The position numbers and the translations under genes are program-made. Below are positions 1-47,465 of a stretch of 64,000 nt of DNA, one piece after another. Below the pieces are notes generated by a model. That model saw nothing but the letters and a program-made list of their open reading frames with translations. It had not been told where the DNA came from and ran no database searches. The DNA comes from Antedon mediterranea (Eukaryota; Animalia; Echinodermata): contig NC_092672.1 in the NCBI RefSeq assembly GCF_964355755.1, positions 18,737,237 through 18,801,236 on the forward strand, read 5' to 3'. Every line of letters starts with the position of its first letter. Position 1 is the first letter of the stretch.

Positions 1-1364
1 AGTGTATTCTGATTGTTCCTATCTTCAATGTACGTATATCCTTGTACATCAAGATCTTCAGGAACTTGAGAAGCAAATGAATGTCTCCAGTGACCATAAT
101 GTCCAGTACTTGGTAAACGAGGTAAAGATCGATCATAAAGACCACTATTTGAAACTCGATCTCTGGTATCATAGTACACAGTAGGTTGATATATCTCTCT
201 ACCAGATGAATCAGTAGCAGTCCTTGTTTTACAAAAGCATTGATAATAAACAGGAATAATGACAACAACGACAACAATAATGACGACTAATATGATAATA
301 ATGATCACAACATACAAAGAGACACTATCCTTATTTTCTTCAGTATTCCTATTTGTATTTACTTTGTGTAATTGTATTAAGTCATTATTTTCTTCTCTAT
401 ACAATTCATTTTCTCTTACAAGTGATATTATCAAAGTAAGTGTATCTCTACTGATACCAACATTGTTTTCGGCAGAACACGTGATTATTGTTCCATTTGC
501 CGCTATTGATGGTTTTATAAGCGTCAATACTTGTCCATCTGCAATATATTTATTTGCATTTATTACAGGTAAAAATGTCCATCTGAATTGAGTAACTGGA
601 GGATTAGCAAATGATTGACAGAATAAAATAGAATCAGATCCGGCGAATAGTGTACTTGTGTGTTGTATTTTAACTTCTGGGCGATATTGTATATTCAGAT
701 TTTGAACTGTACAGTTGCGCTTTCCAGGTAAAACATCTGTTGTTTGAAAACAAGTAAATGTACCATCGTTATCTAGTTTGTTTGCTTTGAATACATAATG
801 ATTATATATAAGTGGGTCTTTATTTTCCCTCGATGTCTTCGAAAGCGAAACATCTCTTGTCTTGTAATTCCAACTTAATTGAACTGGTGGATTAATCATT
901 TCACTAATACAAGATAACTTTATTTCCGATCCAACAACGTAACTCTCTTTTGATTGAATACATTTTGGATATTCACCTGATGGAATTTGATAAACTGCGA
1001 GATAAGCTGGTTGTGATTTAACTTTATTATTTATTTTACAGTGATATTCACCTGCATCTGTTTGCTTTAGGTTGGTAATCAGCAACAAATATGAATAAAT
1101 GTGTGTGTCACCAACTTGCTCTAGGTTTACTGACAACCTCGAATCTTTCAATAAAACTTCTGCTTGATTGCTTAACTTAACATCATCTCTCCACCACGAA
1201 ACTTCATCATTTTTTGGATTAATGTTTTCAATATAACATTTTAGCGTTGCTGCTTTACCTTCTGGTTCGCCTACATCATTGGGTCTTGCAGTAAAATGTC
1301 CACATTCTACAATATGTACAACTACGACGCAAATTACGTATGTACGTATTATTATTATTTCCAT
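1..1364 (-). CDS. L1: intronless 3-Ig (V-C2-I) type I membrane receptor, left family, subfamily A; last codon and stop cut off by the window edge
   Basis: Absent from the ORF track because no stop lies in the window. Manual reading from ATG at 1364 gives MEIIIIRTYVICVVVVHIVECGHFTARPNDVGEPEGKAATLKC, colinear with L4 through to ...RNNQNT(L) at position 1. Confidence 0.9.
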   Translation of the reverse strand, partial: MEIIIIRTYVICVVVVHIVECGHFTARPNDVGEPEGKAATLKCYIENINPKNDEVSWWRDDVKLSNQAEVLLKDSRLSVNLEQVGDTHIYSYLLLITNLKQTDAGEYHCKINNKVKSQPAYLAVYQIPSGEYPKCIQSKESYVVGSEIKLSCISEMINPPVQLSWNYKTRDVSLSKTSRENKDPLIYNHYVFKANKLDNDGTFTCFQTTDVLPGKRNCTVQNLNIQYRPEVKIQHTSTLFAGSDSILFCQSFANPPVTQFRWTFLPVINANKYIADGQVLTLIKPSIAANGTIITCSAENNVGISRDTLTLIISLVRENELYREENNDLIQLHKVNTNRNTEENKDSVSLYVVIIIIILVVIIVVVVVIIPVYYQCFCKTRTATDSSGREIYQPTVYYDTRDRVSNSGLYDRSLPRLPSTGHYGHWRHSFASQVPEDLDVQGYTYIEDRNNQNT

Positions 1365-1856
1365 TTGAAGAATTCCTGATTGCGATTTTCAATATTTTAC
1401 CAGTATAATAATGAAAGTTTATGCGCTGAATACCTACAACATAATCCGAACGTTTAAGAGTCTAAATATGAGAGTAATATTAAATGAATATTAAATTCAC
1501 ATTAAATGAACATATTACCTCCAAGTTTCATCATTCGATTCCTAATGCTGTTATTGTTTATTTAACAATATTACCGATCTCTCATATTTATATCCTTCGC
1601 AAAATTAAAATGAAAAAGATCTTACTAGCATTAAAACGATACAACGCATACTGGATATTAAGTTGTGTTACTGGTATGGGCAAAATGAAGTTTTCATAAT
1701 AATACAATAATCACACTAGGCCAACCTCCAAAATTAGTTTCAGTGTTTTTGTTTTTTCAGAGTTTTGTTGTAATAATTCTTAAAACGAAAGAAAGTTGAG
1801 AAGAAGGTTTTTGTATAATTATCTTTTGCATCCAAACAGTCGATAGGAAGCTTGAT

Positions 1857-12983: not shown

Positions 12984-13372
12984 TTCTGATTGTGTTTAAA
13001 AAAAAATAAATCGTCAACAAGAACATTTATAATACATTTTGAAAAACAAAATACGGCAAAACTGTCTTAACCGGTCCTAACGTCATTGTTAATTTAACAT
13101 TTACCAAACAAGACAATCTCGCATTATAAATAAATAAAGCATAATCAATTTTAAGTTGTGTTACAGGTATTAGCACACTACGTTTTTCATGTTGATAAAT
13201 TAGTTCTTAAATGAAGTTGTTGAAATTCTCTGTTTACAACGGCTGTCAGCTGTGTAGCACCTACATGATTTGTATTTTCTTGTCTTTTGCACCCAAATAT
13301 TCGATAGGAAACCCTAACGAAAACAGGCTTTAGTTTTATCTTTTGCACCCTTTCTGGGAGGTTCATTTAATC

Positions 13373-14755: not shown

Positions 14756-15090
14756 TTTTAATATTAAAACCAATGTCCAGTATGTTTTTGTTACTAATAA
14801 ATAACAGCTTAATCACAGTTGTACCAATTTTGTTTGACGAGTCTACAAAATACAAGTAAAAATGTACAGTACAGTATCCATCTGATTGGTTAAATGAACA
14901 GCAACGATAAAAAAAAAATATGTTACTGGTATAACATATATTTGTTTCCTAAAATAATAATAGGCTAATGTTATAAAATAGTTTATGTGTATGATGTAAT
15001 GATGATGATGTATTTTATACTTTAGCTTTTGATAAGATAAACATTGTCTTAAATGAGACAAATAACATAGTTTACCTCCTTTAAAAAGTA

Positions 15091-25676: not shown

Positions 25677-25704
25677 TTTCATGGTATTGTTCGAACTCGA
25701 TTGA

Positions 25705-28339: not shown

Positions 28340-28344
28340 ATTTG

Positions 28345-32307: not shown

Positions 32308-32399
32308 ATAACGACTGAAATGTATGAGATATGTAATTTATATTTCCATTCATAATACTGTATAATCAGTAACCATAATCTTAACAATATTTTTAATCG

Positions 32400-34502
32400 T
32401 ATACCATGGGATTTATTTGAATGTTTTGATGATATTAATGAATGTTCCTACAATCACTCCTAGAAAAAGACTGTCACTATGGTTCGATAAGGATCTTCGA
32501 AAGGCCTTAAAGGTCAAGAAAGTAAACCTAAGCTCTCTAGGCAGTGCCGAACAAATTTCAATTGTGAAGATTTTAAAATTGCTCGTAGGAGCTTTAAACA
32601 ACTCTGCAGGGTGAAATATTTAAATTATGTTTCTTCCCTATCACAAAAGTTAAATGAAAATCCAAAAGGTTTTTGGTCTTGGGTTAAAAGTAATTACAAA
32701 CAAACAGCACCTTCTTCGTTGAGTTATGGAACGTCCAAAGCTATTACTGATAGTGAAAAAGCAAATCTATTTAACGTATTTTTTCATTCTGTTTTAGTTA
32801 CATTACTATTACAACTTTTCCAGATCTAATCTAGTAATCTATAAGCAAACTATCCAATAATATTGTCGACTCTCAACAGGTGGGAAAACTTCTCACTAGT
32901 ATCCAACCGCATAAGGCCTCCGGATGTGACGGGCTTAGTAACAAGGTTCTTAAATTTTGTGCCAAACCTCTTTCTGTTCTCTTATCTTACATTTTCAAAT
33001 CCCGCTTAATTGTGGTTCTTTTCTCTCTGATTGGAAACGTAGTAACATTTATCCTATTTTCAAAGCGGGATCTCGTACTTCTGTCGAGAATTATCGGCCT
33101 ATTTCTTTACTTCCTACCCTTTATAAAATCTATTATCATATCTCCCGTCTCATATCTCGCCTTTTCTTTCTTGCTTTCAACACGGCTTTGTGTCTAGTAG
33201 GTTGTATCAGACCAATCTATCAACGATGCTTTCCGTTGCCTATGGAGCATTTAGATACAAAAAGTCAGTGTGATGTAGTGTACACGGGTTATTCCAAAGC
33301 GTTTGATAGAGTTTGCCACGACCTACTAGTATACAAAGTCACTAAATTTGGCATCTGTGGTTCTTTTCTTTCCTGGATTAAAAGTTACCTCAATAATTGC
33401 TTCCAATGTGTTACTTATAATGGGTGCACTTCCCCTTGGCTGCCTGTTACATCCGGAGTCCATCAAGGGTCAATCTTAAGACAAATACTGTTCACGATGT
33501 TTGTGAATGATGTTCCTGATATTTCCTCTTTTTCGCATTGCCTCCTTTTTGCGGACGATATTAAGCTTTATCGCGGTGTCAACAACTTAGATGATTCGCG
33601 TTTACTGCAGCGGGACCTGGAAGAGTTGTAGAACTAGTCTTCTACCTGGAAAATGTCCTTTAATCCCCAAAAGTGTCAGGTTCTTTCGTTGACTCTAAAA
33701 AAAAACAGTTACTGCCTTATGATTACATGATAAATGGTGCAATAATTGAAAGGGTCAATGTTCAAAAGAATCTCAGAATACTTATTGACTCCAAGCTTAA
33801 TTTTAACAAACATGTTGATTATATTGTTTTCAAGGGCAATATAATGTTGGGTATGTTCTATATTCGATATTGTAAAGATCTTGATAGTAAAACTAAGCTT
33901 CATCTTTATATTTCATTTGTTAGACCGATTTTTGATTATTCCTCTACTATTTTTAATTCTATATCCGTATCTCAATCAACTCGTATTGAGCGGGTCCAGT
34001 CCAAATGTATTAATTATTTTATTAATTATCACAATGCTGGTCTTTCTATTTCTCTGTGGCTGCTTCATACTAGGAGAAAACTTGTTGATATGGTTTTTCT
34101 CTTTAAGTGCCTGAATTTTATCTTTTTGATTTCCCTCTTCCCTCCTTATTTCTGCTTACAATCCACATACCAAATTTAAGCAACACTGAATTCCTCTCCG
34201 TTCCTTACAGTCGAGTTAATGCTACCAAAAATGGTTTCATTCATAGACTTTCCTTTCAAAATAATATGATTTCACGCAAAAATAAAACTATTGACCTTTT
34301 CTATAACAATATTTCCATGTTCAAAATTTAGGTAGTTTGTGCTATTTAGGCCTAACTGTTTTTATTGTTCTTGTATTAATTTTCTGATAGTTAACTTTAA
34401 TGTGTAAGTTATTTTAATCTTATATATTTATATGTGAGTCTTTAATGCATCCTGTAATTGGCGATATCGCTGTTGGATGTATGTGCAATAAAATAAAATA
34501 AA
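32400..34502 (+). mobile_element. 5'-truncated, degenerate non-LTR retrotransposon (CR1/L2/Jockey group) reverse transcriptase
   Basis: Frameshifted ORFs carry RT motifs ENPKGFWSWVK, ENYRPISLLP, SKAFDRVCH, VTSGVHQGSIL and LFADDIKLY; the 3' end is an (AATAA)n tail at about 34487-34502. Confidence 0.9.
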
Positions 34503-34852
34503 GCTAAATAACACTTGAAGATAGCAGGTATTAAAAAAGAGAAGAATCAGCTGCAGCAATGAAAAGAATGTTGCTATAATTATCATGTTTGATATAATTT
34601 ATGTTGTATTATTAGGCATAAGTAACATAATTATTTATGCCACTATCCCTAAAATAATTGAGTAACAATAAGTTTTATTTTAGTAGCTTTAGATATTAAT
34701 GAAGAAGGCGGTGTTTACGAGACGATCATTAATATGTAGTGAATCGTCAACGTGTATTTTGGTCTACCGCCTCTTCAGTGCTGCAGTGCATGGTGTACAT
34801 TCAACGAAGCAGGTTAAATTATCGCAAAGAATATCAAAACTACTTCCTGGTG

Positions 34853-36199
34853 ATGGACGCGTTTATCAGTTTGTTTTTATTGTGTTTTACTACTTTAACG
34901 TGCTGTTTAAAATTTAGCCATCATCCGACCGGAGGAAAGATACAAGAAGGTTTTGAAATAGAACTTACGTGCTTTTTAACGGGTGATATATTACAAAAGC
35001 AGTTATCGTGGGAAAAGAATAGGTCCAAATTATCGGAAGGAGAAACAATTTTAGAAACAAGCGGATTAGACGAAAAAAGAATAGATGTGGACATTAAACA
35101 GACAACTGGGGCTTATTCATATACAATATCTATATCCAACGTTGTGTATAAAGATAGCGGGTCATATGCTTGCGTTGTTTTTCAAAATGGTGAACAAGTA
35201 TTGACATCTGATTACGCTATTGTAACGGTTTTTCAACTACCAAGCCCAGAATATCCAATATGTACCAGAATATCACGACCAGTAATAACAGAGGAAGAAA
35301 TAACCTTTAAATGTGAAGGGGAAACGATAAACCCACCAATAGATTTAAGTTGGTCTATTGGTGGAAGCAAATTAGAAATTAGCGATGAATCATATGTTGA
35401 TTCAGAGAGAACGTTTGCTATGTATTCATTAACAGCAAGTCCAAATAACAACAATGCCGTTTACGTATGCTCACTCACAACTCCAGCTAACCGTAGTATT
35501 GTCAAAAACTGTAGCATTGGACCACTAAATGTTTGGTATAAACCTAATGTTACAATACAACATGCAGGGATATCATTGTCAGGAAGGGAAGCCATCTTTA
35601 TTTGTCAAGCAGATGCAAACCCCCCAGTTGTAGATTTTACGTGGCTGTTTGATCCGCCATTAAAAATTGAACGTTATGTTATTGATGACATTGGGCAAGT
35701 TATGCGTATTCTACGCGCTACTCTTGATGAAAATGGATTACTTGTTAAATGCATAGCAGAAAATACTGTTGGTCAGGTGACATCTCACGTGATCATGGAA
35801 GTGATTGGTAATAAAGATGATGACAAACCAAAGACAAACGCTATTGAATCTGTGAATGAAAAACAAGCAGAAAAGAAAAGTATATCTTTATCAGTTTTAT
35901 TAGCTGTTGTATCTGTATTAGTTCTTGTTATTGTATTTGCTATTATTGTTCCTGTTTATTACTTCTGTATTTGCTCAAAGAAAGAGGAAACTGTTGTTAT
36001 TGCTCAACCGGAAGTATACTTTGAACCTCAAGATCGTCTGACATTACCATTGCCAAATAAAAGAAACTCTGTGTTGTGGAGACGTTCATTTGGAGCTCAA
36101 GTTCCTACAGATAGAGATGTAGATGCCATGTATTTGGAGATACAGAGTGATCATTACATCTTCACACCTGATAGCAGAGGAAATACTCTGCCTTATTGA
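34853..36199 (+). CDS. R3: 3-Ig membrane receptor, subfamily E
   Basis: ORF 34739..36199; likely start is MDAFISLFLLCFTTLTCC (ATG 34853) by homology to R2/R5. Confidence 0.92.
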   Translation: MDAFISLFLLCFTTLTCCLKFSHHPTGGKIQEGFEIELTCFLTGDILQKQLSWEKNRSKLSEGETILETSGLDEKRIDVDIKQTTGAYSYTISISNVVYKDSGSYACVVFQNGEQVLTSDYAIVTVFQLPSPEYPICTRISRPVITEEEITFKCEGETINPPIDLSWSIGGSKLEISDESYVDSERTFAMYSLTASPNNNNAVYVCSLTTPANRSIVKNCSIGPLNVWYKPNVTIQHAGISLSGREAIFICQADANPPVVDFTWLFDPPLKIERYVIDDIGQVMRILRATLDENGLLVKCIAENTVGQVTSHVIMEVIGNKDDDKPKTNAIESVNEKQAEKKSISLSVLLAVVSVLVLVIVFAIIVPVYYFCICSKKEETVVIAQPEVYFEPQDRLTLPLPNKRNSVLWRRSFGAQVPTDRDVDAMYLEIQSDHYIFTPDSRGNTLPY

Positions 36200-36596
36200 A
36201 TAAAGTTTACGTTTGATAGACACACGTAACTTATTTACCAGTAGTAACTTAATTTTCTTATTAAAACATTTGTAAAATTTGCGAAATTGTACGATACTGT
36301 ATTGTAATTGTCCTTATTGTTATAACAATGGTGTACTAAGTAACATTACTTTTTTTCAAGTTTCCCTCAATTAATAGATAACACGAACTTTAATCATAGT
36401 AGCCATGTATAATGTATATTACCGAGAAAGGCGGTGCTTACAAATGGTTAATAATAATGTAGTGAACCATGAACGTGTGTGTTGCGAAACATTCTATAGC
36501 ACAGTTTAGTATATTACCAGATGCATTGGTCTTGTTATGGTTATCAGTTGTGAGAAAGTAAAACACACGTTTTTAAGTGAATCACCAATTATCACA

Positions 36597-37952
36597 ATGG
36601 TTAACTCAAGGTATATTTTGATGTTACTAAAATTGTGCTTTTTTAAAAGAATTATGACATCGTCAACCGAATTTAGTCATCATCCTCGGGAAGAAACTGT
36701 GATTGAGGGTACTGCTGTAAAATTGACATGCGGTATTGAAGGAGTTGATTCTGAAAGTACGTTTGCTTGGATAAAAAATGGTGTTACATTGACTAGCGGT
36801 AATGCCATTTTAGAATCTAGCCCATATTTTCATCGTAATGTATTAGTTGATTTTGGATGGTTGTCAAAAACATCTATTTACTATGGACTTAAAATTAATA
36901 ATGTTCTGTACAGTGATTCAGGAGAATACGCATGCATTGTAAATCATAATGGATTTGAGGTAAAATCTAATACAGCTTATATAACAGTTAATCAATTACC
37001 GGATCGTACTTATCCGTTATGTAAACAAATAGGCAGCCCTGTTAAGGAAGGAAAGCAAGTGAATCTGAGATGTGAAGGTGAAGTTTTAAACCCACCCATC
37101 GAATTACAATTATCAAGATCAATGGCAGGTAACCAATCAGTTACCATATTGAATAAGCGAACAACGCCTATTATTAATTCATTTGTAGCAAATCGTGTTG
37201 ATAATAATGCTATATTTAATTGTCAGCTAACAACACCAGCGAATACAAGTATCGTTAGAACATGTAGTATTGGACCACTAAATGTTTGGTATAAACCTAA
37301 TGTTACAATACAACATGCAGGGATATCATTATCAGGAAGAGAAGCCATTTTTATTTGCCAATCTGATGCAAACCCACCAGTAGTAGATTTTACGTGGCAA
37401 TTTGATCCGCCATTAAACATTGAGCGTTATGTTATTGATGATATTGGGCAAGTTATGCGCATTCTAAAAGTTGACATTGATGACAATGGATTACTTGTTA
37501 AATGCATTACCAAAAATACTGTTGGTCAGGTGACATCTCACGTGATCATGGAAGTGATTGGTGTTAAAGAAGAGGACAAACCAAAGACAAACGCTATTGA
37601 ATCTGTGAATGAAAAACAAGCAGAAAAGAAAAGTATATCTTTATCAGTTTTACTAGCTGTTGTATCTGTATTAGTTCTTGTTATTGTATTTGCTATTATT
37701 GTTCCTGTTTATTACTTCTGTATTTGCTCTAAGAAAGAGGAAACTGTTGTTATTGCTCAACCGGAAGTATACTTTGAACCTCAAGATCGTCTGACATTAC
37801 CATTGCCAAATAAAAGAAATTCTGTGTTGTGGAGACGTTCATTTGGAGCTCAAGTTCCTACAGACAGAGATGTAGATGCCATGTATTTGGAGATACAAAG
37901 TGATCACTATATCTTCACACCAGATAGCAGAGGAAATACTTTGCCTTATTGA
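36597..37952 (+). CDS. R4: 3-Ig membrane receptor, subfamily F
   Basis: ORF 36537..37952; likely start is MVNSRYILMLL (ATG 36597) by homology to R6-R9. Confidence 0.9.
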   Translation: MVNSRYILMLLKLCFFKRIMTSSTEFSHHPREETVIEGTAVKLTCGIEGVDSESTFAWIKNGVTLTSGNAILESSPYFHRNVLVDFGWLSKTSIYYGLKINNVLYSDSGEYACIVNHNGFEVKSNTAYITVNQLPDRTYPLCKQIGSPVKEGKQVNLRCEGEVLNPPIELQLSRSMAGNQSVTILNKRTTPIINSFVANRVDNNAIFNCQLTTPANTSIVRTCSIGPLNVWYKPNVTIQHAGISLSGREAIFICQSDANPPVVDFTWQFDPPLNIERYVIDDIGQVMRILKVDIDDNGLLVKCITKNTVGQVTSHVIMEVIGVKEEDKPKTNAIESVNEKQAEKKSISLSVLLAVVSVLVLVIVFAIIVPVYYFCICSKKEETVVIAQPEVYFEPQDRLTLPLPNKRNSVLWRRSFGAQVPTDRDVDAMYLEIQSDHYIFTPDSRGNTLPY

Positions 37953-38390
37953 ATAATTATGTTTCATTAACATATGTATATTATAATTAATCAATTACAT
38001 ATAATATGACAATGAAAATAATATAGTCGTACACACAGTAATTGTTTAGAATAACAAATAGGCCTACATGTTCTTAATTTTTCCATTAAGAAATATACAT
38101 AATTATCATTATTGGTGTGATTTTAGTTTGTACCATAAGTATAAGATTGCTCGATGACATAAGTAACACGATTTGTCATCTTAGTATCCTCAAATTAATT
38201 GAGTAACATATAGTTTTATTTTAATAGCCGTACATGTTTAATGAATAAGGCGGTGTTTACTAAACCTTCATTAATATGTAGTGAAACATTAGCATAAGTG
38301 CACAGTCAAAGAGGCAGGTTCAGTTGTCGCAAAGCATATCACAAATTTACTTGAACTTCATAATCAAAGCAGCACAACTTTATTGTCGTT

Positions 38391-39737
38391 ATGGAAGTGT
38401 TTGTATGGTTTCACACATTGCTTATTATTCATGTATCGTTCTGTTTCAAATTTAGCCATCATCCGATTGGAAGTAAGGTTCAAGAAGGGTTTGGTGTGGA
38501 ACTTACCTGCTTTTTAACGGGCGATTTATCAAAAGAACAGTTATCGTGGGTGAAGGATAGTTCATCACTAACAAAAGGAGAAATAATTTTAGACACAAGT
38601 GGTGTAGACCAAGAAAGAATAAATGTGCACATCATACAGACAACTGGTGTTTATGCATATACAATATCTATATCCAGCGTTGTGTATAAAGATAGCGGGT
38701 CATATGCTTGCGTTGTTTTTCAAAATGGTGAACAAGTATTGACATCTGATTACGCTGTTGTAACTGTTTTTCAACTACCAAGTCCCGAATATCCAATATG
38801 TACCAGAATATCACGACCAGTAATAACAGAGGAAGAAATAACCTTTAAATGTGAAGGGGAAACGATAAACCCACCAATATATTTAAGTTGGTCTATTGGT
38901 GGAAGCAAATTAGAAATTAACGTTGAATCACATGTTGATTCAGAGAAAACGTTTTCTACGTATTCATTAACAGCAAGTCCAAATAACAACAATGCCGTCT
39001 ACGTATGCTCACTCACAACTCCAGCTAACCGTAGTATTGTCAAAAACTGTAGCATTGGACCACTAAATGTCTGGTATAAACCTAATATTACAATACAACA
39101 TGCAGGAAGATCGTTTTCAGGAAGAGAAGCCATTTTTATTTGCCAATCTGATGCAAACCCACCAGTAGTAGATTTTACGTGGCAATTTGATCCGCCATTA
39201 AACATTAAGCGTTATGTTATTGATCATATTGGGCAGGTTATGCGTATTCTACGTGTTACTCTTGATGACAATGGATTACTTGTTAAATGCATAGCAGAAA
39301 ATACTGTTGGTCAGGTGACATCTCACGTGATCATGGAAGTGATTGGTGTTAAAGAAGAGGACAAACCAAAGACAAACGCTATTGAATCTGTGAATGAAAA
39401 ACAAGCAGAAAAGAAAAGTATATCTTTATCAGTTTTACTAGCTGTTGTATCTGTATTAGTTCTTGTTATTGTATTTGCTATTATTGTTCCTGTTTATTAC
39501 TTCTGTATTTGCTCAAAGAAAGAGGAAACTGTTGTTATTGCTCAACCGGAAGTATACTTTGAACCTCAAGACCGACTGACATTACCATTGCCAAATAAAA
39601 GAAACTCTGTGTTGTGGAGACGTTCATTTGGAGCACAAGTTCCTACAGATAGAGATGTTGATGCCATGTATTTGGAAATACAGAGTGAGCATTACATCTT
39701 CACACCAGATAGCAGAGGAAATACTCTGCCTTATTGA
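38391..39737 (+). CDS. R5: 3-Ig membrane receptor, subfamily E
   Basis: 448-aa ORF, same architecture. Confidence 0.93.
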   Translation: MEVFVWFHTLLIIHVSFCFKFSHHPIGSKVQEGFGVELTCFLTGDLSKEQLSWVKDSSSLTKGEIILDTSGVDQERINVHIIQTTGVYAYTISISSVVYKDSGSYACVVFQNGEQVLTSDYAVVTVFQLPSPEYPICTRISRPVITEEEITFKCEGETINPPIYLSWSIGGSKLEINVESHVDSEKTFSTYSLTASPNNNNAVYVCSLTTPANRSIVKNCSIGPLNVWYKPNITIQHAGRSFSGREAIFICQSDANPPVVDFTWQFDPPLNIKRYVIDHIGQVMRILRVTLDDNGLLVKCIAENTVGQVTSHVIMEVIGVKEEDKPKTNAIESVNEKQAEKKSISLSVLLAVVSVLVLVIVFAIIVPVYYFCICSKKEETVVIAQPEVYFEPQDRLTLPLPNKRNSVLWRRSFGAQVPTDRDVDAMYLEIQSEHYIFTPDSRGNTLPY

Positions 39738-40294
39738 CCGATAATTAAGTTTCCGGAAGAGTGAAATTAATGTTCATGCATTCCTTCATTCATCTTTTTA
39801 TATACCATAACAAATCATTGAAATAAATCCCAAGCCAAAAAAAACCACAAAAAAAAAACACACACACACGCTTTAACCAAGAAAAAAAAGTAGAAATATA
39901 GAAATATATCTCGTGGCGCAGGGCCCTTCTGAATCACTCGGCTCTGACTAGCCTTCCTAGCAAGTAAAGGAGCCTCGCATTCAAACGCCGCTTGTACCAC
40001 AGCCATTTTAACCAAATAGAAATGTTATTTCATTAAACAATTAAATTAGAAGTTCAAATAATATTTAGTGTTTTGAAACGAAGAAGACGAAATTTCACTC
40101 TAAGCTCCGCCCACTTTGTTAAAGCGCATGCATAAATTATTTATGAGCACCGTCCTGTTTTAATAAAGTCCATATAATTGTAATTGTAGAAGGTTTAAGA
40201 TTGTGAGATAGGTCTGGTATCGCCATAATTATTTCAATAAATAAGGGTTTATTAAGAAACAATGTTTTTTATCCTAGTATCCGGAATTTAATGA

Positions 40295-40382
40295 GTAACG
40301 TTACATTTTATTTTAGTAGCCGTCGATCATGTGTATTGCAGAAAAGGCGGTGCTTACAATTATGTAATTAATATGTAGTGAA
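40295..40382 (+). promoter_or_regulatory. Conserved upstream element, right array (R6 example): GTAAC-N16-GTAGCC ... AAGGCGGTG(C/T)TTAC ... TAATATGTAGTGAA
   Basis: Core starts at 28912, 30738, 34662, 36378, 38203, 40295, 41984, 43946 and 45905, i.e. 188-226 bp before each ATG, with the same GTAAC-to-GC spacing as in the left array. Confidence 0.72.
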
Positions 40383-40503
40383 GCATGAAACGCGTAACTA
40401 AATATTTCTCGGCTTAGTATATTGTAGTTAACATACGTATACAATTTGTTATCACTATAACCCTTCTGGGAAAGTAATACATGTATTTAAGTTACTGTAC
40501 AAA

Positions 40504-41862
40504 ATGAATATTTTAAGGTACGTTTTTATTCTATTTCAATTTTGTTTTGTTAAGCGGATTGTGGCAACATCCGCAGAATTTGTTTACCATCCTCAAACTG
40601 AAACCGTAATTGAAGGTACTACTGCTTTGAAATTGACATGCGTTTTTGAAGGAGCTGATTCTGAAAGTACGTTTTCTTGGATAAAAAATGGTGTTACATT
40701 AACCAATGGTAAAGACATTTTAGAATCTAGTCCATTTTTTGATCACAATGTATTCGTTGATTTTAGATGGTTAACTACAACTTCTATTTACTATACACTT
40801 GAAATAAGTAACGTTTTGTATAGTGATTCCGGAGAATACGCATGCGTTGTAAATCAGAATGGATTTGAGGTAAAATCCAATACAGCTTATATAACAGTTA
40901 ATCAATTACCGGATCGTACTTATCCGTTATGTGAACAAATAGGCAGCCCTGTTAAAGAAGGAAAGCAAGTGAATTTAAGATGTGAAGGTGAGGTTATAAA
41001 CCCACCCATCGAATTACAATTATCAAGATCAATGCCAGGTAACCAAGCAGTTACCATATTGAATAAGCGGACAACGCCTATTATTAATTCATTTGTAGCA
41101 AATCGTGTTGATAATAATGCTATATTTAATTGTCAGCTAACAACACCAGCGAATACAAGTATCGTTAGAACATGTAGTATTGGACCACTAAATGTCTGGT
41201 ATAAACCCAATGTTACAATACAACATGCAGGGATATCATTATCAGGAAGGGAAGCCATTTTTATTTGTCAATCTGATGCAAACCCCCCAGTAGTAGATTT
41301 TACGTGGCAATTTGATCCGATATTAAACATTGAGCGTTATGTTATTGATGATATTGGGCAAGTTATGCGCATTCTAAAAATTGAAATTGAGGACAATGGA
41401 TTACTTGTTAAATGCATAGCCAAAAATACTGTTGGTCAGGTGACATCTCACGTGATCATGGAAGTGATCGGTAATAAAGCAGATGACAAACCAAAGACAA
41501 ACGCTATTGAATCTGTGAATGAAAAAGAAGCAGAAAAGAAAAATATATCTGTATCAGTTTTACTAGCTGTTGTATCTGTATTAGTTCTTGTTATTGTATT
41601 TGCTATTATTGTTCCTGTTTATTACTTCTGTATTTGTTCAAAGAAAGAGGAAAATGTTGTTATTGCTCAACCGGAAGTATACTTTGAACCTCAAGATCGT
41701 CTGACATTACCATTGCCAAATAAAAGAAACTCTGTGTTGTGGAGACGTTCATTTGGAGCTCAAGTTCCTACAGACAGAGATGTAGATGCCATGTATTTGG
41801 AGATACAGAGTGAGCATTACATCTTCACGCCAGATAGCAGAGGAAATACCCTGCCTTATTGA
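40504..41862 (+). CDS. R6: 3-Ig membrane receptor, subfamily F
   Basis: 452-aa ORF, same architecture. Confidence 0.93.
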   Translation: MNILRYVFILFQFCFVKRIVATSAEFVYHPQTETVIEGTTALKLTCVFEGADSESTFSWIKNGVTLTNGKDILESSPFFDHNVFVDFRWLTTTSIYYTLEISNVLYSDSGEYACVVNQNGFEVKSNTAYITVNQLPDRTYPLCEQIGSPVKEGKQVNLRCEGEVINPPIELQLSRSMPGNQAVTILNKRTTPIINSFVANRVDNNAIFNCQLTTPANTSIVRTCSIGPLNVWYKPNVTIQHAGISLSGREAIFICQSDANPPVVDFTWQFDPILNIERYVIDDIGQVMRILKIEIEDNGLLVKCIAKNTVGQVTSHVIMEVIGNKADDKPKTNAIESVNEKEAEKKNISVSVLLAVVSVLVLVIVFAIIVPVYYFCICSKKEENVVIAQPEVYFEPQDRLTLPLPNKRNSVLWRRSFGAQVPTDRDVDAMYLEIQSEHYIFTPDSRGNTLPY

Positions 41863-42192
41863 CTGATAATTAAGTTTCATCAGGGAAGAGTGAAATTAGT
41901 GTCTGGTATCGCCATAATTATTGCAATAATTGAGGTTTTATTAAGTAACAATGTTTTTTATCCTTGTATCCGGAATTAAAGGAGTAACGTTACATTTTAT
42001 TTTAGTAGCCGTCGATCATGTGTATTGCAGAAAAGGCGGTGCCTACAATTATGTAATTAATATGTAGTGAAGCATGAAACGCGTAACTAAATATTTCTCG
42101 GCTTAGTATATTGTAGTTAACATACGTATACAATTTGTTATCACTATAACCCTTCTGGGAAAGTAATACATGTATTTAAGTTACTGTACAAA

Positions 42193-43554
42193 ATGAATAT
42201 TTTAAGGTACGTTTTTATTCTATTTCAATTTTATTTTGTTAAGCGGATTGTGGCAACATCCACAGAATTCATTTATCATCCTCGAGCTGAAACCGCAATT
42301 GAGGGAACTGCCGTTAAATTGACATGCGGTGTTGAAGGAGTTGATTCTGAAAGTACGTTTTCTTGGATTAAAAATGGTGTTACATTGACCAATGGTAAAG
42401 ACATTTTAGAATCTAGTCCATATTTTGATCGCAATGTATTAGTTGATTTTGGGTGGTTAACCACAACATCTATCTACTATGGACTTGAAATAAGTAATGT
42501 TTTGTATAGTGATTCCGGAGAATACGCATGCGTTGTAAATATGAATGGAGTTGAGGTAAAATCCAATACAGCTTATGTAACAGTTAATCAATTACCGGAT
42601 CGTACTTATCCGATATGTAAACAAATAGGCAGCCCTGTTAAAGAAGGAAAGGAAGTGAATCTGAGATGTGAAGGTGAGGTTATAAACCCACCCATCGAAT
42701 TACAATTATCAAGATCAATGCCAGGTAACCAAGCAGTTACCATATTGAATAAGCGGACAACGCCTATTATTAATTCATTTGTAGCAAATCGTGTTGATAA
42801 TAATGCTATATTTAATTGTCAGCTAACAACACCAGCGAATACAAGTATCGTTAGAACATGTAGTATTGGACCACTAAATGTCTGGTATAAACCCAATGTT
42901 ACAATACAACATGCAGGGATATCATTATCAGGAAGGGAAGCCATTTTTATTTGCCAATCTGATGCAAACCCACCAGTAGTAGATTTTACTTGGCAATTTG
43001 ATCCGCCATTAAACATTGAGCGTTATGTTATTGATGATATTGGCCAAGTTATGCGCATTCTAAAAGTTGACATTGATGACAATGAATTACTTGTTAAATG
43101 CATAGCCAAAAATACTGTTGGTCAGGTGACATCTCACGTGATCATGGAAGTGATCGGTAATAAAGAAAATGACAAACCAAAGACAAACGCTATTGAATCT
43201 GTGAATGAAAAACAAGCAGAAAAGAAAAGTAGGCCTATATCTTTATCAGTTTTATTAGCTGTTGTATCTGTATTAGTTCTTGTTATTGTATTTGCTATTA
43301 TTGTTCCTGTTTATTACTTCTGTATTTGCTCAAAGAAAGAGGAAACTGTTGTTATTGCTCAACCGGAAGTATACTTTGAACCTCAAGATCGTCTGACATT
43401 ACCATTGCCAAATAAAAGAAACTCTGTGTTGTGGAGACGTTCATTTGGAGCTCAAGTTCCTACAGACAGAGATGTAGATTCCATGTATTTGGAGATACAT
43501 AGTGAGCATTACATCTTCACACCAGATAGCAGAGGAAATACTCTGCCTTATTGA
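42193..43554 (+). CDS. R7: 3-Ig membrane receptor, subfamily F
   Basis: 453-aa ORF with a 2-aa RP insertion before the TM. Confidence 0.93.
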   Translation: MNILRYVFILFQFYFVKRIVATSTEFIYHPRAETAIEGTAVKLTCGVEGVDSESTFSWIKNGVTLTNGKDILESSPYFDRNVLVDFGWLTTTSIYYGLEISNVLYSDSGEYACVVNMNGVEVKSNTAYVTVNQLPDRTYPICKQIGSPVKEGKEVNLRCEGEVINPPIELQLSRSMPGNQAVTILNKRTTPIINSFVANRVDNNAIFNCQLTTPANTSIVRTCSIGPLNVWYKPNVTIQHAGISLSGREAIFICQSDANPPVVDFTWQFDPPLNIERYVIDDIGQVMRILKVDIDDNELLVKCIAKNTVGQVTSHVIMEVIGNKENDKPKTNAIESVNEKQAEKKSRPISLSVLLAVVSVLVLVIVFAIIVPVYYFCICSKKEETVVIAQPEVYFEPQDRLTLPLPNKRNSVLWRRSFGAQVPTDRDVDSMYLEIHSEHYIFTPDSRGNTLPY

Positions 43555-44154
43555 CTGATAATTAAGTTTCATCAGGGAAGAGTGAAATTAATGTTACATT
43601 CATTCTTTCATTGATCTTTTTCTTTCTTATATACCATAACAAATCATCATAAGAAATCCATAGCAAATTTAAAAAAAAACAAACTTTAACCAAGAAAAAA
43701 ATAGAAATAGATGTACAATTATAAAGGAATAGTCAATGTAAGAAAGTATTCCATTGTTTATGCATTATTGAGACATTAAGAAGGTGATTTCTAATAGTCT
43801 TGATCTTAGTGAATCGTCTTAGTAATAATAGTAATTGTAGAAGATTTAAGATTGTGGGATAGGTCTGGTATCGCCATACTTATTGCAATAGATAAGGGTT
43901 TATTAAGTAACAATGCTTTTTATCCTAGTATCCGGAATTAAAGGAGTAACATTATATTTTATTGTAGTAGCCGTCGATCATGTACATTGCAAAAAAGGCG
44001 GTGCTTACAATTATGTAATTAATATGTAGTGAACCATGAAACGCGTAACTAAATATTTCTCGGCTTAGTATATTGTAGTTAACACACGTATTCAATTTGT
44101 TATCACTATAACCCTTCTGGGAAAGTAATACATGTATTTAAGATACTGTACAAA

Positions 44155-45513
44155 ATGAATATTTTAAGGTACGTTTTTATTCTATTTCAATTATATTTTG
44201 TTAAGCGAATTGTGGCAACATCCGCAGAATTTGTTTACCATCCTCAAACTGAAACCGTAATTGAAGGTACTCCTGCTTTGAAATTGACATGCGTTTTTGA
44301 AGGAGTTGATTCTGAAAGTACGTTTTCTTGGATAAAAAATGGTGTTACATTGACCAATGATAAAGACATTTTAGAATCTAGTCCATATTTTGATCGCAAT
44401 GTATTCGTTGATTTTGGATGGTTAACTACAAATTCTATTTACTATAAACTTGAAATAAGTAATGTTTTGTATAGTGATTCCGGAGAATACGCATGCGTTG
44501 TAAATCAGAATGGATTTGAGGTAAAATCCAATACAGCTTATATAACAGTTAATCAATTACCGCATCGTACTTATCCGTTATGTGAACAAATAGGCAGCCC
44601 TGTTAAAGAAGGAAAGGAAGTGAATCTCAGATGTGAAGGTGAGGTTATAAACCCACCCATCGAATTACAATTATCAAGATCAATGGCAGGTAACCAAGCA
44701 GTTACCATATTGAATAAGCGGACAACGCCTATTATTAATTCATTTGTAGCAAATCGTGTTGATAATAATGCCATATTTAATTGTCAGCTAACAACACCAG
44801 CAAATACAAGCATTGTTAGAACATGTAGCATTGGACCACTAAATGTCTGGTATAAACCTAATGTTACAATACAACATGCAGGGATATCATTATCAGGAAG
44901 GGAAGCCATTTTTATTTGCCAATCTGATGCAAACCCACCAGTAGTAGATTTTACTTGGCAATTTGATCCGATATTAAAAATTGAGCGTTATGTTATTGAT
45001 GATATTGGGCAAGTTATGCGCATTCTAAAAATTGAAATTGAGGACAATGGATTACTTGTTAAATGCATAGCCAAAAATACTGTTGGTCAGGTGACATCTC
45101 ACGTGATTATGGAAGTGATCGGTAATAAAGAAGATGACAAACCAAAGAAAAAGGCTATTGAATCTGTGAATGAAAAACAAACAGAAAAGAAAAGTATATC
45201 TTTATCAGTTTTACTAGCTGTTGTATCTGTATTAGTTCTTGTTATTGTATTTGCTATTATTGTTCCTGTTTATTACTTCTGTATTTGCTCAAAGAAAGAG
45301 GAAACTGTTGTTATTGCTCAACCGGAAGTATACTTTGAACCTCAGGATCGTCTGACATTACCATTGCCAAATAAAAGAAACTCTGTGTTGTGGAGACGTT
45401 CATTTGGAGCTCAAGTTCCTACAGACAGAGATGTTGATGCCATGTATTTGGAGATACAGAGTGAGCATTACATCTTCACACCAGATAGCAGAGGAAATAC
45501 TCTGCCTTATTGA
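44155..45513 (+). CDS. R8: 3-Ig membrane receptor, subfamily F
   Basis: 452-aa ORF, closest to R6. Confidence 0.93.
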   Translation: MNILRYVFILFQLYFVKRIVATSAEFVYHPQTETVIEGTPALKLTCVFEGVDSESTFSWIKNGVTLTNDKDILESSPYFDRNVFVDFGWLTTNSIYYKLEISNVLYSDSGEYACVVNQNGFEVKSNTAYITVNQLPHRTYPLCEQIGSPVKEGKEVNLRCEGEVINPPIELQLSRSMAGNQAVTILNKRTTPIINSFVANRVDNNAIFNCQLTTPANTSIVRTCSIGPLNVWYKPNVTIQHAGISLSGREAIFICQSDANPPVVDFTWQFDPILKIERYVIDDIGQVMRILKIEIEDNGLLVKCIAKNTVGQVTSHVIMEVIGNKEDDKPKKKAIESVNEKQTEKKSISLSVLLAVVSVLVLVIVFAIIVPVYYFCICSKKEETVVIAQPEVYFEPQDRLTLPLPNKRNSVLWRRSFGAQVPTDRDVDAMYLEIQSEHYIFTPDSRGNTLPY

Positions 45514-46112
45514 CTGATAATTAAGTTTCATCAGGGAAGAGTGAAATTAATGTTACATTCATTCTTTCATTGATCTTTTTATTTCTTATATACCATAACA
45601 AATCATCGTAAGAAATGCATAGCAAATAAAAAAAAAAAAAAAATTTAACCAAGAAAAAAATAGAAATAGATGTACAATTATAAAGGAATAGTCAATGTAA
45701 GAAAGTATTCCATTGTTTATGCATTATTGAGACATTAAGAAGGTGATTTCTAATAGTCTTGATCTTAGTGAATCGTCTTAGTAATAATAGTAATTGTAGA
45801 AGATTTAAGATTGTGAGATAGGTCTGGTATCGCCATACTTATTGCAATAGATAAGGGTTTATTAAGTAACAATGCTTTTAATCCTAGTATCCGGAATTTA
45901 AGGAGTAACATTATATTTTATTTTAGTAGCCGTCGATCATGTGTATTGCAGAAAAGGCGGTGCTTATAATTATGTAATTAATATGTAGTGAACCATGAAA
46001 CGTGTAACTAAATATTTCTCGGCTTAGTACATTATAGTAACATACGTATTCAATTTGTTATCACTATAACCCTTCTGGGAAAGTAATACATGTATGTAAG
46101 TTACTGTACAAA

Positions 46113-47465
46113 ATGAATATTTTAAGGTACGTTTTTATTCTTTTTCAATTTTATTTTGTTAATCGAATTGTGGCAACATCCACAGAATTCATTTATCATC
46201 CTCGAGCTGAAACTGCAATTGAGGGAACTGTTGTGAAATTGACATGCGGTGTTGAAGGAGTTGATTCTGAAAGTACGTTTTCTTGGATAAAAAATGGTGT
46301 TACATTGACCAATGGTAAAGACATTTTAGAATCTAGTCCATATTTGGATCGCAATTTATTCGTCGATTTTGGATGGTTAACTACAACTTCTATTTACTAT
46401 ACCCTTGAAATAAGTAATGTTTTGCACAGTGATTCCGGAGAATACGCATGCATTGTAAATCATAATGGATTTGAGGTAAAATCTAATACAGCTTATATAA
46501 CAGTTAATCAATTACCACATCGTACTTATCCGTTATGTGAACAAATAGGCAGCCCTGTTAAAGAAGGAAAGCAAGTGAATCTGAGATGTGAAGGTGAGGT
46601 TATAAACCCACCCATCGAATTAAAATTATCAAGATCAATGCCAGGTAACCAAGCAGTTACCATATTGAATAAGCGGACAACGCCTATTATTAATTCATTT
46701 GTAGCAAATCGTGTTGATAATAATGCTATATTTAATTGTCAGCTAACAACACCAGCGAATACAAGTATCGTTAGAACATGTAGTATTGGACCACTAAATG
46801 TTTGGTATAAACCTAATGTTACAATACAACATGCAGGGATATCATTATCAGGAAGGGAAGCCATTTTTATTTGTCAAGCAGATGCAAACCCACCAGTAGA
46901 CTTTACGTGGCAATTTGATCCGATATTAAACATTGAGCGTTATGTTATTGATGATATTGGGCAAGTTATGCGCATTCTAAATGTTGACATTGATGACAAT
47001 GGATTACTTGTTAAATGCATAGCCAAAAATACTGTTGGTCAGGTGACATCTCACGTGATCATGGAAGTGATCGGTAATAAAGAAGACGACAAACCAAAGA
47101 CAAACGCTATTGAATCTGTGAATGAAAAACAAGCAGAAAAGAAAAGTATATCTTTATCAGTTTTACTAGCTGTTGTATCTGTATTAGTTCTTGTTATTGT
47201 ATTTGCTATTATTGTTCCTGTTTATTACTTTTGTATTTGCTCAAAGAAAGAGGAAACTGTTGTTATTGCTCAACCGGAAGTATACTTTGAACCTCAAGAT
47301 CGTCTGACATTACCATTGCCAAATAAAAGAAACTCTGTGTTGTGGAGACGTTCATTTGGAGCTCAAGTTCCTACAGACAGAGATGTTGATGCCATGTATT
47401 TGGAGATACAGAGTGATCATTACATCTTCACACCAGATAGCAGAGGAAATACTCTGCCTTATTAA
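46113..47465 (+). CDS. R9: 3-Ig membrane receptor, subfamily F (last gene of the right array)
   Basis: 450-aa ORF with an N-terminus closest to R7. Confidence 0.93.
   Translation: MNILRYVFILFQFYFVNRIVATSTEFIYHPRAETAIEGTVVKLTCGVEGVDSESTFSWIKNGVTLTNGKDILESSPYLDRNLFVDFGWLTTTSIYYTLEISNVLHSDSGEYACIVNHNGFEVKSNTAYITVNQLPHRTYPLCEQIGSPVKEGKQVNLRCEGEVINPPIELKLSRSMPGNQAVTILNKRTTPIINSFVANRVDNNAIFNCQLTTPANTSIVRTCSIGPLNVWYKPNVTIQHAGISLSGREAIFICQADANPPVDFTWQFDPILNIERYVIDDIGQVMRILNVDIDDNGLLVKCIAKNTVGQVTSHVIMEVIGNKEDDKPKTNAIESVNEKQAEKKSISLSVLLAVVSVLVLVIVFAIIVPVYYFCICSKKEETVVIAQPEVYFEPQDRLTLPLPNKRNSVLWRRSFGAQVPTDRDVDAMYLEIQSDHYIFTPDSRGNTLPY

Follow-up and report, generated by a model that had tools for sequence, protein, structure and literature searches.

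A candidate cell-cell recognition code in a crinoid: 22 tandem genes for three-Ig transmembrane receptors

Background

Nectins are encoded by few, multi-exon genes and bind, like Kirrel, in trans through their GFCC′ face, and clustered protocadherins carry six extracellular cadherin repeats. In the vertebrate beta protocadherins, as described in PMC4978886, tandem single-exon genes lie in several sub-clusters with a conserved element about 200 bp upstream, and gene conversion spares the specificity domains; in clustered protocadherins generally, synonymous divergence (dS) is low near the membrane and high in the distal domains. Clustered protocadherins are reported to be absent from echinoderms, A. 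japonica included (PMC10734073). Among other clustered Ig receptors, chelicerate sDscam genes have variable 5′ parts with alternative promoters (PMC4835542), in multi-exon, Dscam1-derived cassettes spliced to constant exons, and the Hydractinia Alr genes encode single-pass Ig proteins, with pseudogenes, one domain per exon, an Fn3-like domain, ITAM/ITIM motifs and tails more divergent than the ectodomains (PMC9546547). KIR/LILR families pair ITIM forms with activating forms that have a charged transmembrane (TM) segment. In echinoderms themselves, kirrelL is intronless in all species examined and is required for skeletogenic cell fusion (PMC8903837).

Here we describe a crinoid locus of 22 three-Ig genes in tandem which, judged from its sequence features, has about an even chance of working as a cell-cell recognition code. 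It resembles the beta protocadherins in its tandem single-ORF paralogues, several sub-clusters, conserved upstream elements and dS gradient, but is built on an Ig scaffold, with three Ig domains and no cadherin repeats, and is not homologous to them. Stochastic combinatorial neuronal expression and isoform-specific homophilic binding are further features of the clustered protocadherins.

Results and discussion

The window (the whole 64,000-nucleotide stretch of Antedon mediterranea DNA analysed) contains 22 uninterrupted ORFs of 447–464 aa, 13 on the minus strand (3–24765, left array) and nine on the plus strand (29109–47465, right array), and no array members were found in the window to the right of 47465. 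The earlier note had counted 13 + 9 intact genes, and all 22 ORFs are indeed present, although L1 leaves the window before its stop codon and is intact only as far as visible. Each ORF encodes a signal peptide, three Ig domains, a stalk, a TM segment and a tyrosine-containing tail, a build borne out by Pfam, which found Ig domains and no other families in 6/6 array proteins tested, and by an AlphaFold model of L8 (pLDDT 76.5, ectodomain mostly 85–96), in which a signal helix is followed by three beta-sandwich domains, and the stalk and the tail, both disordered, flank a TM helix. A single ORF thus carries ectodomain and TM segment in full in 22/22 tandem paralogues, and every ORF comes with a tail and stop of its own (that of L1 lying outside the window), so that, unlike in protocadherins, a shared constant exon is not needed; sDscam cassettes differ likewise, as the array repeats whole ORFs. 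The description of the genes as intronless applies to the ORFs, while introns in the 5′ UTR are possible. The proposed pitch of about 1.7–2.1 kb was found for 18/20 neighbouring pairs, the exceptions being L12-L13 (2988 bases) and R2-R3 (3889 bases), and the shortest spacers between array genes measure 330 bases. The two arrays are separated by a 4.3 kb gap with repeats and two relics inside, and for that reason we dropped the label 'bidirectional promoter' for this region.

Six ectodomain subfamilies were counted in the window, three per array, at the lower end of the six to seven suggested previously. In the left array, La comprises L1 (3–1364, the frame exiting the window just short of the stop), L2 (1857–3212; the second Met is the likely start, with the ORF reaching 3284), L4 (5778–7142, with the signal peptide swapped via a 5′ intron in database model P0003), L5 (7872–9242) and L7 (11619–12983). 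Lb consists of L3 (3943–5307), with Ig3 and stalk DNA 92–100% identical to the adjoining L2, and L6 (9818–11179), with stalk-to-tail DNA 98–100% identical to the adjoining L5. Lc holds L8 (13373–14755), L9 (15091–16479), L10 (16852–18246), L11 (18619–20013, 98% identical to L10), L12 (20386–21777) and L13 (23389–24765), the first gene of the left array. In the right array, which starts with R1 (29109–30476), the sole member of Ra, subfamily Rb is formed by R2 (30964–32307), R3 (34853–36199; second Met the likely start, ORF from 34790) and R5 (38391–39737), and Rc by R4 (36597–37952; again the second Met, ORF from 36537), R6 (40504–41862), R7 (42193–43554), R8 (44155–45513) and R9 (46113–47465), the last gene. 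Three decayed fragments, absent from the earlier note, were also detected: a frameshifted L-type fragment from Ig3 to TM (22700–23043, minus strand, 91% to L13), a short R-type Ig3 fragment (26604–26718, plus strand, 71% to R5) and a frameshifted R-type fragment from the end of Ig3 to the tail (28354–28759, plus strand, 82% to R1).

It is very improbable that the array was produced by the assembly, or that it is a tandem repeat evolving neutrally. A few copies are nearly identical (L10/L11, as above), only 7/22 ORFs were found in the protein database, and the whole stretch is spanned by no contig among those listed; against this, the 22 frames are open, dN/dS is far below 1 in each Ig domain as well as in TM and tail, and unique DNA contigs agree with the window. 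The latter comparison covered 13000–32900 of the window, where contigs of runs X2 and X4 matched unique sequence in L8, L13, R1 and the beginning of R2 with 0–3 differences. Together with the recurrence of the same gene classes in a second genus (below), this makes an assembly artefact, raised earlier as a possible refutation, unlikely. Run X1 was treated as DNA, the alternative that it represents RNA being dropped since it covers spacers and repeats as the DNA runs do. X1 contig depths of 40.5, 89.1 and 174.8, compared with about 3–7 for unique pieces, were not taken as copy-number variation, as they largely reflect collapsed paralogues: 18/22 and 13/13 of the differences listed match R5 and R6/R8, respectively.

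Ectodomains and tails have diverged to very different extents. Between subfamilies, Ig1 identity is 34–39% with synonymous sites near saturation, whereas tail identity is 97–98% with a dS of about 0.11. For the L genes (52 between-subfamily pairs), Ig1 is saturated (pS 0.75) and dS is 1.53 in Ig2, 1.18 in Ig3, 0.20 in TM and 0.11 in the tail, and for the R genes (23 pairs) the corresponding values are 1.51 (Ig1), 1.44 (Ig2), 0.25 (Ig3), 0.015 (TM) and 0.12 (tail); tail dS is the same within subfamilies as between them. Identical DNA tracts between subfamilies are up to 269 bases long, with 12/12 of the longest falling in Ig3-to-tail codons. The dS gradient, from near saturation in Ig1 to about 0.11 in the tail, suggests gene conversion limited to the 3′ end, and together with the identical tracts and the species-grouped L tails it points to conversion that spares the putative specificity domain, Ig1. 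Conversion would then hold TM and tail constant, in the role that shared constant exons have in protocadherin alpha and gamma, and this would represent another route to a 'constant region', in which TM and tail are converted rather than exons shared. As there are many close copies (Ig1 is 99% identical in L10/L11 and 93% in R6/R8), the window may encode only about 6–10 distinct specificities.

Relatives were found in a second crinoid genus, Anneissia, with 28 on one scaffold in four tail classes. In the Ig1 tree, Antedon and Anneissia sequences are joined in Lc (100/100), Ra (100/91), Rc (99/96) and Lb (93/96), giving counterparts for 4/6 Ig1 subfamilies, and no counterpart of La or Rb was present among the Anneissia proteins retrieved. 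Tails of the L type instead group by species, all 13 from Antedon falling in a single clade (100/96). Copy numbers in Antedon and Anneissia are uneven, at 6 versus 1 for Lc and 2 versus 5 for Lb, and immune families behave likewise, both in this respect and in the missing La and Rb counterparts. Across the wider family there are four tail classes in arrays, plus divergent single members; the earlier statement that there are only two tail types thus holds in the window, where both types are homologous, but not beyond it. A tail profile search of 1.84 billion proteins gave 22 matches, and 16/16 of those with a known source were crinoid. Homologue searches returned crinoid proteins and four weak generic Ig matches, and the profile homologue search (31 matches, 3 of them weak generic Ig) found no members beyond crinoids. 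Similarity to Dscam was weak and generic. Foldseek best matches were Necl-4 (1e-21) and nectin-1 (7e-19) at just 18–23% identity; the array shares with nectins and Necl (CADM) proteins a V-C2-I/C2 three-domain ectodomain and a single TM, but differs from nectins in that a PDZ-type C-terminus is found in none of the 22 window tails (8/72 in the wider set). In the ESM Atlas, whole L8 gave ties at 0.95 among generic Ig clusters in the matches listed, and the P0056 tail gave nothing at ≥0.9. A literature search found no description of the array or family, which bears out the earlier impression that it is not a described one, and its reading as an independently expanded, diversified receptor array with variable ectodomains and a common tail also stands, as it could not be assigned to any cluster characterised so far.

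A likely link that the earlier note missed is to the intronless echinoderm KirrelL-type Ig genes. In the supplement of PMC8903837 (about 400 letters per sequence), an additional pair of cysteines around Ig2 can be recognised by eye in the KirrelL, Kirrel2L and IgTM entries; the present family has the same pair (C134 and C217) in 39/41 members, with joint loss in the other two. KirrelL, Kirrel2L, IgTM and Hypp1164 are also echinoderm proteins with three Ig domains and a TM, and intronless in so far as this is stated for kirrelL, and from comparison by eye they are probably the nearest evolutionary relatives of the array. In the supplement entries they are longer (492–737 characters), with one entry per species listed and no arrays. 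The array genes were rejected as kirrelL orthologues, since Anneissia kirrelL is a separate 623-character entry that differs by eye from all array proteins, and no kirrelL-type protein was among the matches of the homologue or tail searches. We therefore regard the array as an undescribed clustered Ig family, convergent on the protocadherin-beta layout and likely related to KirrelL-type genes, a link which keeps a skeletogenic or cell-fusion role possible. That the array genes are KirrelL-like proteins for adhesion or fusion in skeleton-forming cells, multiplied to raise dosage or to serve particular ossicles and with no combinatorial code, is rather unlikely: the intronless structure, the fusion requirement of kirrelL and the shared cysteine pair agree with it, but the separate and longer Anneissia kirrelL and the lack of any non-crinoid protein among the tail-profile matches of known source do not, and dosage alone does not explain divergent Ig1 beside a homogenised tail.

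Nearly all window genes are preceded by a conserved motif. In the left array, ACCNGTAACA has 11 exact matches in the window against 0.53 expected, all on the minus strand (span 1666–24949; 5′ ends at 1675, 3533, 5467, 7462, 9598, 13168, 14930, 16671, 18438, 20205 and 24949), one per gene and 160–356 bases 5′ of the ATG, and one-mismatch variants lie 5′ of L12 and L6. In the right array, AAGGCG(G/T)TG has 8 plus-strand matches against 0.33 expected (span 30781–45962; starts at 30781, 34705, 36428, 38247, 40344, 42033, 43995 and 45954), one 144–183 bases 5′ of each of R2–R9 and flanked by conserved GTAAC and TAGTGAA blocks, and none before R1 or after R9. Both are candidate promoter elements and would act as per-gene promoters; motifs common to the upstream regions of paralogues indicate constraint and are not proof of promoter function. 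The beta protocadherins have an upstream element as well, but the array motifs are not the CGCT box.

Isoform choice could also be made by splicing, in a reversal of the protocadherin layout, with a common non-coding leader exon spliced onto any one of a large set of last exons, each holding a whole ORF. This reading concerns regulation and fits with any of the proposed functions, and we consider it somewhat unlikely. The Anneissia entries XP_033118812-818 are numbered as isoforms X1–X4 in order of descending length (514, 481, 455 and 445 aa), with several accessions each for X1 and X2, and such numbering presumably denotes one gene with shared exons; the four are nonetheless different paralogous ORFs, which suggests shared exons or read-through as opposed to purely independent promoters. 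Also in line with splicing are the short spacers, the lack of AATAAA or ATTAAA within 300 bases downstream in 9/21 genes, and a single-copy stretch between the arrays with the only TGACGTCA of the window and a donor-like site. Read-through transcripts could, however, give the same annotation, each conserved element lies at a promoter-like distance from its gene, and acceptor-like sites occur 5′ of 16/22 genes but also in 59/108 background stretches and are hence uninformative; neither the splice-acceptor nor the poly(A) scan distinguished the genes from background.

With respect to function, we propose that each cell switches on a subset of the array genes, that the variable Ig1 pairs with a matching protein on the cell next to it, and that the common tail delivers one shared signal. 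Ig1 would bind in trans through its GFCC′ face, the one used by nectins and Kirrel, with a specificity set by subfamily, and signalling may proceed via tyrosine phosphorylation and a proline motif of the SH3-type consensus. In a post hoc test with faces set by strand alternation and not by coordinates, variation within subfamilies was lower at outward GFCC′ positions than at outward ABED ones (0.37 vs 0.47, two-sided p 0.051, a borderline result), and across genera the values were 0.48 vs 0.67 (p 0.032); between subfamilies the GFCC′ positions do differ (0.82). The dN/dS was 0.29 for GFCC′ and 0.57 for ABED, and ranged over Ig1 regions from 0.08 to 0.71 (counting method, paralogues only), with the maximum in the BC loop, the most variable part of Ig1. 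With a predicted adhesion face that changes little inside each subfamily and no dN/dS above 1 in any region, these data favour a cell-cell code over the chasing of pathogens.

An unlikely alternative to such a code is a family of innate immune receptors carried by coelomocytes or epithelia, with ectodomains that recognise microbes or their products and a common tail that passes on the signal. Lineage-specific expansion, pseudogene fragments, mosaic genes, tyrosine motifs in all tails and the peak of Ig1 variation in the BC loop are all compatible with immunity. However, no Ig1 region reaches a dN/dS of 1, Ig1 classes are kept across genera, the ITAM pattern occurs in 1/72 tails and ITSM in none, and ITIM matches in window tails are confined to the TM edge of R genes and one site in R7, the only cytoplasmic one. 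The window also has no charged TM residue (0/22 genes) and no tail-less partner forms, and so does not show the paired forms of KIR/LILR.

The array shares with Hydractinia Alr an invertebrate cluster of single-pass Ig genes with pseudogenes and variable ectodomains, and the first ESM Atlas match of L8 is a chordate cluster auto-named 'Histocompatibility ligand transmembrane form'. An allorecognition locus of the Hydractinia Alr or Botryllus fuhc type, where strongly polymorphic alleles tell individuals apart, is nonetheless improbable. Feather stars live solitary, and the chordate cluster ties at 0.95 with eight generic Ig clusters among the matches listed. One X1 contig is an R5-like mosaic in which 4/22 differences listed are found in no window paralogue, whereas L8 residues 1–144 were nearly identical to the window in contigs from two samples (0–2 differences per piece) and L10 residues 2–183 had 1 difference in 543 bases in an X1 contig, a comparison that covered two samples and two genes. 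The multi-exon, ITAM/ITIM-bearing Alr genes, with tails that vary more than ectodomains (PMC9546547), are the opposite of the array. The KIR/LILR and Alr parallels drawn earlier are so far unsupported, in view of the lack of ITAMs, of paired charged-TM forms and of dN/dS above 1, of tails less variable than ectodomains, and of the near-identity of L8 and L10 Ig1 in two samples, whereas the likeness to clustered protocadherins goes further than had been apparent, given the dS gradient, the per-gene upstream motifs and the cross-genus Ig1 classes.

Conclusions

The array, largely missing from current annotation with 7/22 ORFs found in the protein database, is a concrete, small and cloneable candidate for echinoderm cell identity without clustered protocadherins or diversified Dscam, and as each isoform is one 1.4-kb ORF, binding can readily be tested all-by-all and expression in single cells. 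Should its role be immune instead, the array would still be a large and diversified family of Ig receptors, apparently undescribed, from a deuterostome outside the chordates. As a guess at the tissue, we would name the nerves of the branching arms first, and skeleton-forming or fusing cells second. Taken as a whole, it is a tentative possibility that crinoids independently evolved a clustered cell-identity code beside those of protocadherins and Dscam, comprising four sub-clusters with dozens of intronless Ig receptors, isoform-specific binding by Ig1, a common tail kept by conversion, and cell-by-cell choice made either by promoters of the individual genes or by a leader exon that they share. 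If true, such a code would give these animals, which are reported to lack clustered protocadherins, a means of neuronal self-avoidance or of specific wiring in their many branching arms.

Organisation of the receptor gene array

The window contains 23 ATG-started ORFs of at least 150 aa, 22 of which belong to one receptor family, with thirteen located on the minus strand (L1-L13, 3-24765) and nine on the plus strand (R1-R9, 29109-47465). The receptor ORFs are 447-464 aa in length, given a second-methionine start for L2, R3 and R4, and Pfam Ig families were matched by 6/6 array proteins tested. The AlphaFold model of L8 (input alignment of 38 rows, mean pLDDT 76.5) begins with a signal helix followed by three well-predicted beta domains, and continues through a disordered stalk and a transmembrane (TM) helix to a tail that is also disordered. 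The 13 + 9 single-ORF Ig receptor genes proposed in the earlier note were thus confirmed, and the reading frames are uninterrupted as it claimed, except that the L1 frame leaves the window shortly before its stop codon. The suggested pitch of about 1.7-2.1 kb applies to 18/20 neighbour pairs (1689-2113 bases) but not to the remaining two, and of the 6-7 ectodomain subfamilies estimated, six were counted in the window. Three decayed fragments are located in the L12-L13 gap and the inter-array gap, and no family-related sequence was found right of R9 within the window.

The array is real: DNA contigs from sequencing runs X2 and X4 were compared with the window over 13000-32900 and agree with it without differences in unique sequence, for example at 28730-29808 and 30437-31306, and an assembly artefact is extremely improbable. 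Database proteins were found for 7/22 window ORFs, and the named protein P0003 is identical to L4 across its final 400 residues. Upstream of L4 (7142-7330, minus strand), the P0003 model has a short exon with a GT donor spliced to an AG within the signal peptide, which deletes most of this peptide; the donor context is also conserved upstream of L1 and L2.

Other elements are scattered over the window. Two 225-base copies at 25078-25703 (98.7% identical) lie in a repeat whose read depth is very high. Each includes a minus-strand call resembling tRNA-Asp with an ATC anticodon (25204-25275 and 25605-25676), and the repeat is probably a tRNA-derived SINE. The R2-R3 gap holds a 150-aa ORF (33727-34179) with no Pfam match, in which we see a resemblance to the terminal part of a LINE reverse transcriptase. 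Right of the array are two minisatellites with 11 copies each of a 38-base unit (49769-50188) and a 14-base unit (50567-50724), as well as a 3.2-kb element (52986-56178) with 900-base inverted repeats at its ends (98.8% identical); this element lacks a long ORF and is probably a DNA transposon of the non-autonomous type.

Divergence gradient and probable gene conversion

Amino-acid identity between subfamilies is lowest in Ig1, at 34% for L and 39% for R, and reaches 97-99% in the TM helix and tail. Between-subfamily dS in the L array (52 pairs) was saturated in Ig1, and was 1.53 in Ig2, 1.18 in Ig3, 0.20 in TM and 0.11 in the tail, with corresponding values of 1.51, 1.44, 0.25, 0.015 and 0.12 for the R array (23 pairs); the within-subfamily tail dS equals the between-subfamily value (0.10-0.12). 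Since selection at the protein level is unable to flatten synonymous sites, this strongly argues that the 3′ portions of the array genes have undergone repeated gene conversion. Gene conversion is further supported by identical DNA tracts of up to 269 bases common to genes with only ~35% Ig1 identity, and by the 92-100% match of L3 and L6 to their downstream neighbours L2 and L5 over Ig3-stalk or stalk-tail.

In an Ig1 tree (57 rows, none excluded), the subfamilies Lc (L8-L13), Ra (R1), Rc (R4, R6-R9) and Lb (L3, L6) and the wider-family classes S and M each unite Antedon and Anneissia genes, La (L1, L2, L4, L5, L7) and Rb (R2, R3, R5) are without an Anneissia partner, and one Anneissia group is without a window partner. 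The TM-tail tree, built on 55 rows with P0014 and P0035 excluded as partial, places 13/13 L tails of Antedon in a single clade (100/96) separate from the Anneissia L tails, and its R tails do not separate by species. With Ig1 grouped by subfamily and L tails by species, the ectodomain classes are thus older than the Antedon/Anneissia split, and L-tail homogenisation is younger.

Relatives and tail classes

The L8 homologue search gave 28 proteins (5 window ORFs or models, 21 from Anneissia japonica, one other from Antedon mediterranea and one weak carp match), and the R2 search gave 15 (2 window-encoded, 9 Anneissia and 4 Antedon). A single scaffold of 1,305,899 bases holds 28/30 of the Anneissia proteins retrieved, with tails of class L (9), M (11), R (5) and S (3), and M and S members are also present on the Antedon contig beyond the window. 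The claim of only two tail types therefore holds within the window, but the wider family has these four classes, the alignment of which has 17 invariant columns.

A profile of the TM end and tail, run over 1,835,955,588 representatives (E <= 0.001), had 22 matches. Of these, 6 were crinoid proteins seen before and the other 16 were new; 10 of the new proteins were traced (7 Antedon, and 3 Anneissia on other scaffolds). As all matches of traced origin are crinoid, the tail looks crinoid-specific at the sensitivity of this profile. Proteins P0048-P0061 are divergent single members sharing the same tail motifs, and several bear an ITIM-like terminal tyrosine or PDZ-type end, both absent from array genes.

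The tail motif set comprised 72 tails, including one duplicate, with two more proteins lacking the anchor. Consensuses other than ITAM and ITIM are those in general use; W-x-R-S-x-x-x-Q-V/A was present in 69/72, Yxx(I/L/V) in 71/72 and the SH3 class I pattern in 40/72 tails, and the count of QPxVY is circular, as the tails were found via this motif. With ITAM and ITIM consensuses from PMC9546547, the ITAM pattern was found in 1/72 tails; the ITSM pattern was found in 0/72.

Ig1 surface and polymorphism

Proteins of the nectin-1/Necl-4 type bind in trans via the GFCC′ face of their first domain, and Foldseek ranked Necl-4 and nectin-1 at the top for an array protein model (18-23% identity). Outward Ig1 positions (13 GFCC′, 10 ABED) were set by strand alternation on the secondary structure of the model. 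Variation was lower for GFCC′ than for ABED both within 11 subfamilies (0.37 versus 0.47, two-sided p 0.051) and between genera (0.48 versus 0.67, p 0.032), and GFCC′ variation between subfamilies was 0.82. The dN/dS of Antedon paralogues was 0.29 for the GFCC′ face, 0.57 for ABED, 0.71 for the BC loop and 0.36 for the whole Ig1. Though post hoc and borderline, the pattern fits a conserved class-specific interface and not a surface under pathogen pressure, which speaks against the array genes being immune receptors, a function we consider unlikely. An N-glycan sequon is present in mature Ig1 of 1/22 window proteins, while C134 and C217 are present in 39/41 family members and jointly lost in two, indicating a putative second disulfide within Ig2.

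Contigs of sample S1 (run X1) had 0 and 1 differences from the window over L8 residues 1-144 and 1 difference in 543 bases over L10 residues 2-183, and pieces of sample S2 across L8 had 0-2 differences. Because the assembly can derive from no more than one of the two samples, Ig1 of L8 and L10 is not hyperpolymorphic within this tiny sample of two samples and two genes, which counts against allorecognition, itself very unlikely. An R5-like contig from run X1 on 31259-31647 has a depth of 40.5 versus about 3-7 for unique pieces, and four of its listed differences match no paralogue in the window, which weakly suggests additional Rb copies in sample S1.

Upstream elements and possible isoform choice

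The candidate promoter element ACCNGTAACA has 11 copies in the window versus 0.53 expected (first-order Markov model), all on the minus strand and once per gene, 160-356 bases 5′ of L start codons, with one-mismatch variants upstream of L6 and L12; its counterpart AAGGCG(G/T)TG has 8 copies versus 0.33 expected, 144-183 bases 5′ of R2-R9. As both patterns were derived from these same upstream regions, their excess over expectation speaks to where the motifs sit and to their conservation among divergent subfamilies, and not to function. Both motifs belong to 5′ ends: L13 has the L motif in front of it despite lacking an upstream paralogue, and no R motif follows R9.

Consecutive accessions and the labels isoform X1-X4 were given to four Anneissia proteins (P0011, P0010, P0007 and P0013) that are different paralogous ORFs. 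Since RefSeq numbers the isoforms of a single gene in this way, non-coding exons in common or read-through may be involved, a hint that counts against a pure promoter model. It favours isoform choice via a leader exon common to the genes, an alternative separate from the functional readings that is possible but somewhat doubtful. Acceptor-like sites occur upstream of 16/22 genes versus 59/108 background stretches, and do not separate genes from background. A single-copy stretch between the arrays (26860-27070) holds the only TGACGTCA of the window (at 26947) and a donor-like CAG/GTAT (27059-27065), and is a candidate shared enhancer or leader exon.

Comparison with known systems and proposed function

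The layout of the array resembles that of the protocadherin-beta cluster in its single-exon tandem genes, a conserved element ~200 bp upstream, and conversion sparing the specificity domains (PMC4978886), but the array proteins are not cadherins, and clustered protocadherins are reported absent from echinoderms including A. japonica (PMC10734073). Exon structure and tail behaviour set the Alr genes apart (PMC9546547), and sDscam has spliced cassettes (PMC4835542).

The nearest relatives are probably echinoderm KirrelL-type proteins, which by eye share the extra Ig2 cysteines over the first ~400 letters of the sequences in PMC8903837 supplement 7; the kirrelL gene is intronless and required for skeletogenic cell fusion, according to that paper. 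In the same supplement, Anneissia kirrelL is a separate protein and is longer than the array members. A role of the array in KirrelL-like skeletogenic adhesion or fusion is unlikely.

Family members bear unspecific database names such as 'cell adhesion molecule-like' or 'kin of IRRE-like', and no description of the array was found in the accessible literature on crinoid and echinoderm Ig genes, tandem expansions, feather-star genomes and kirrelL, nor in the passages searched of an invertebrate IgSF review (PMC11999971) and a feather-star genome paper (PMC13079724); subscription papers or crinoid-genome supplements could mention one. In agreement with the earlier note, which did not recognise a described family, the array is apparently an undescribed member of the clustered-receptor kind. 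The diversified recognition system that it suggested is partly supported by the divergence gradient, per-gene motifs and cross-genus classes, but not by a pathogen-type Ig1 surface or hyperpolymorphic Ig1 of L8 and L10.

How the genes are built, how their divergence is graded, their motifs and their conservation across genera are all shown by the data. The best reading of the array is a cell-cell recognition code, to which we give an even chance, with promoter choice, trans binding and tissue of action as its proposed parts. In such a code, crinoid cells would express subsets of the array genes, trans binding would be class-specific through Ig1, and a common tyrosine-based output would come from the converted tail.
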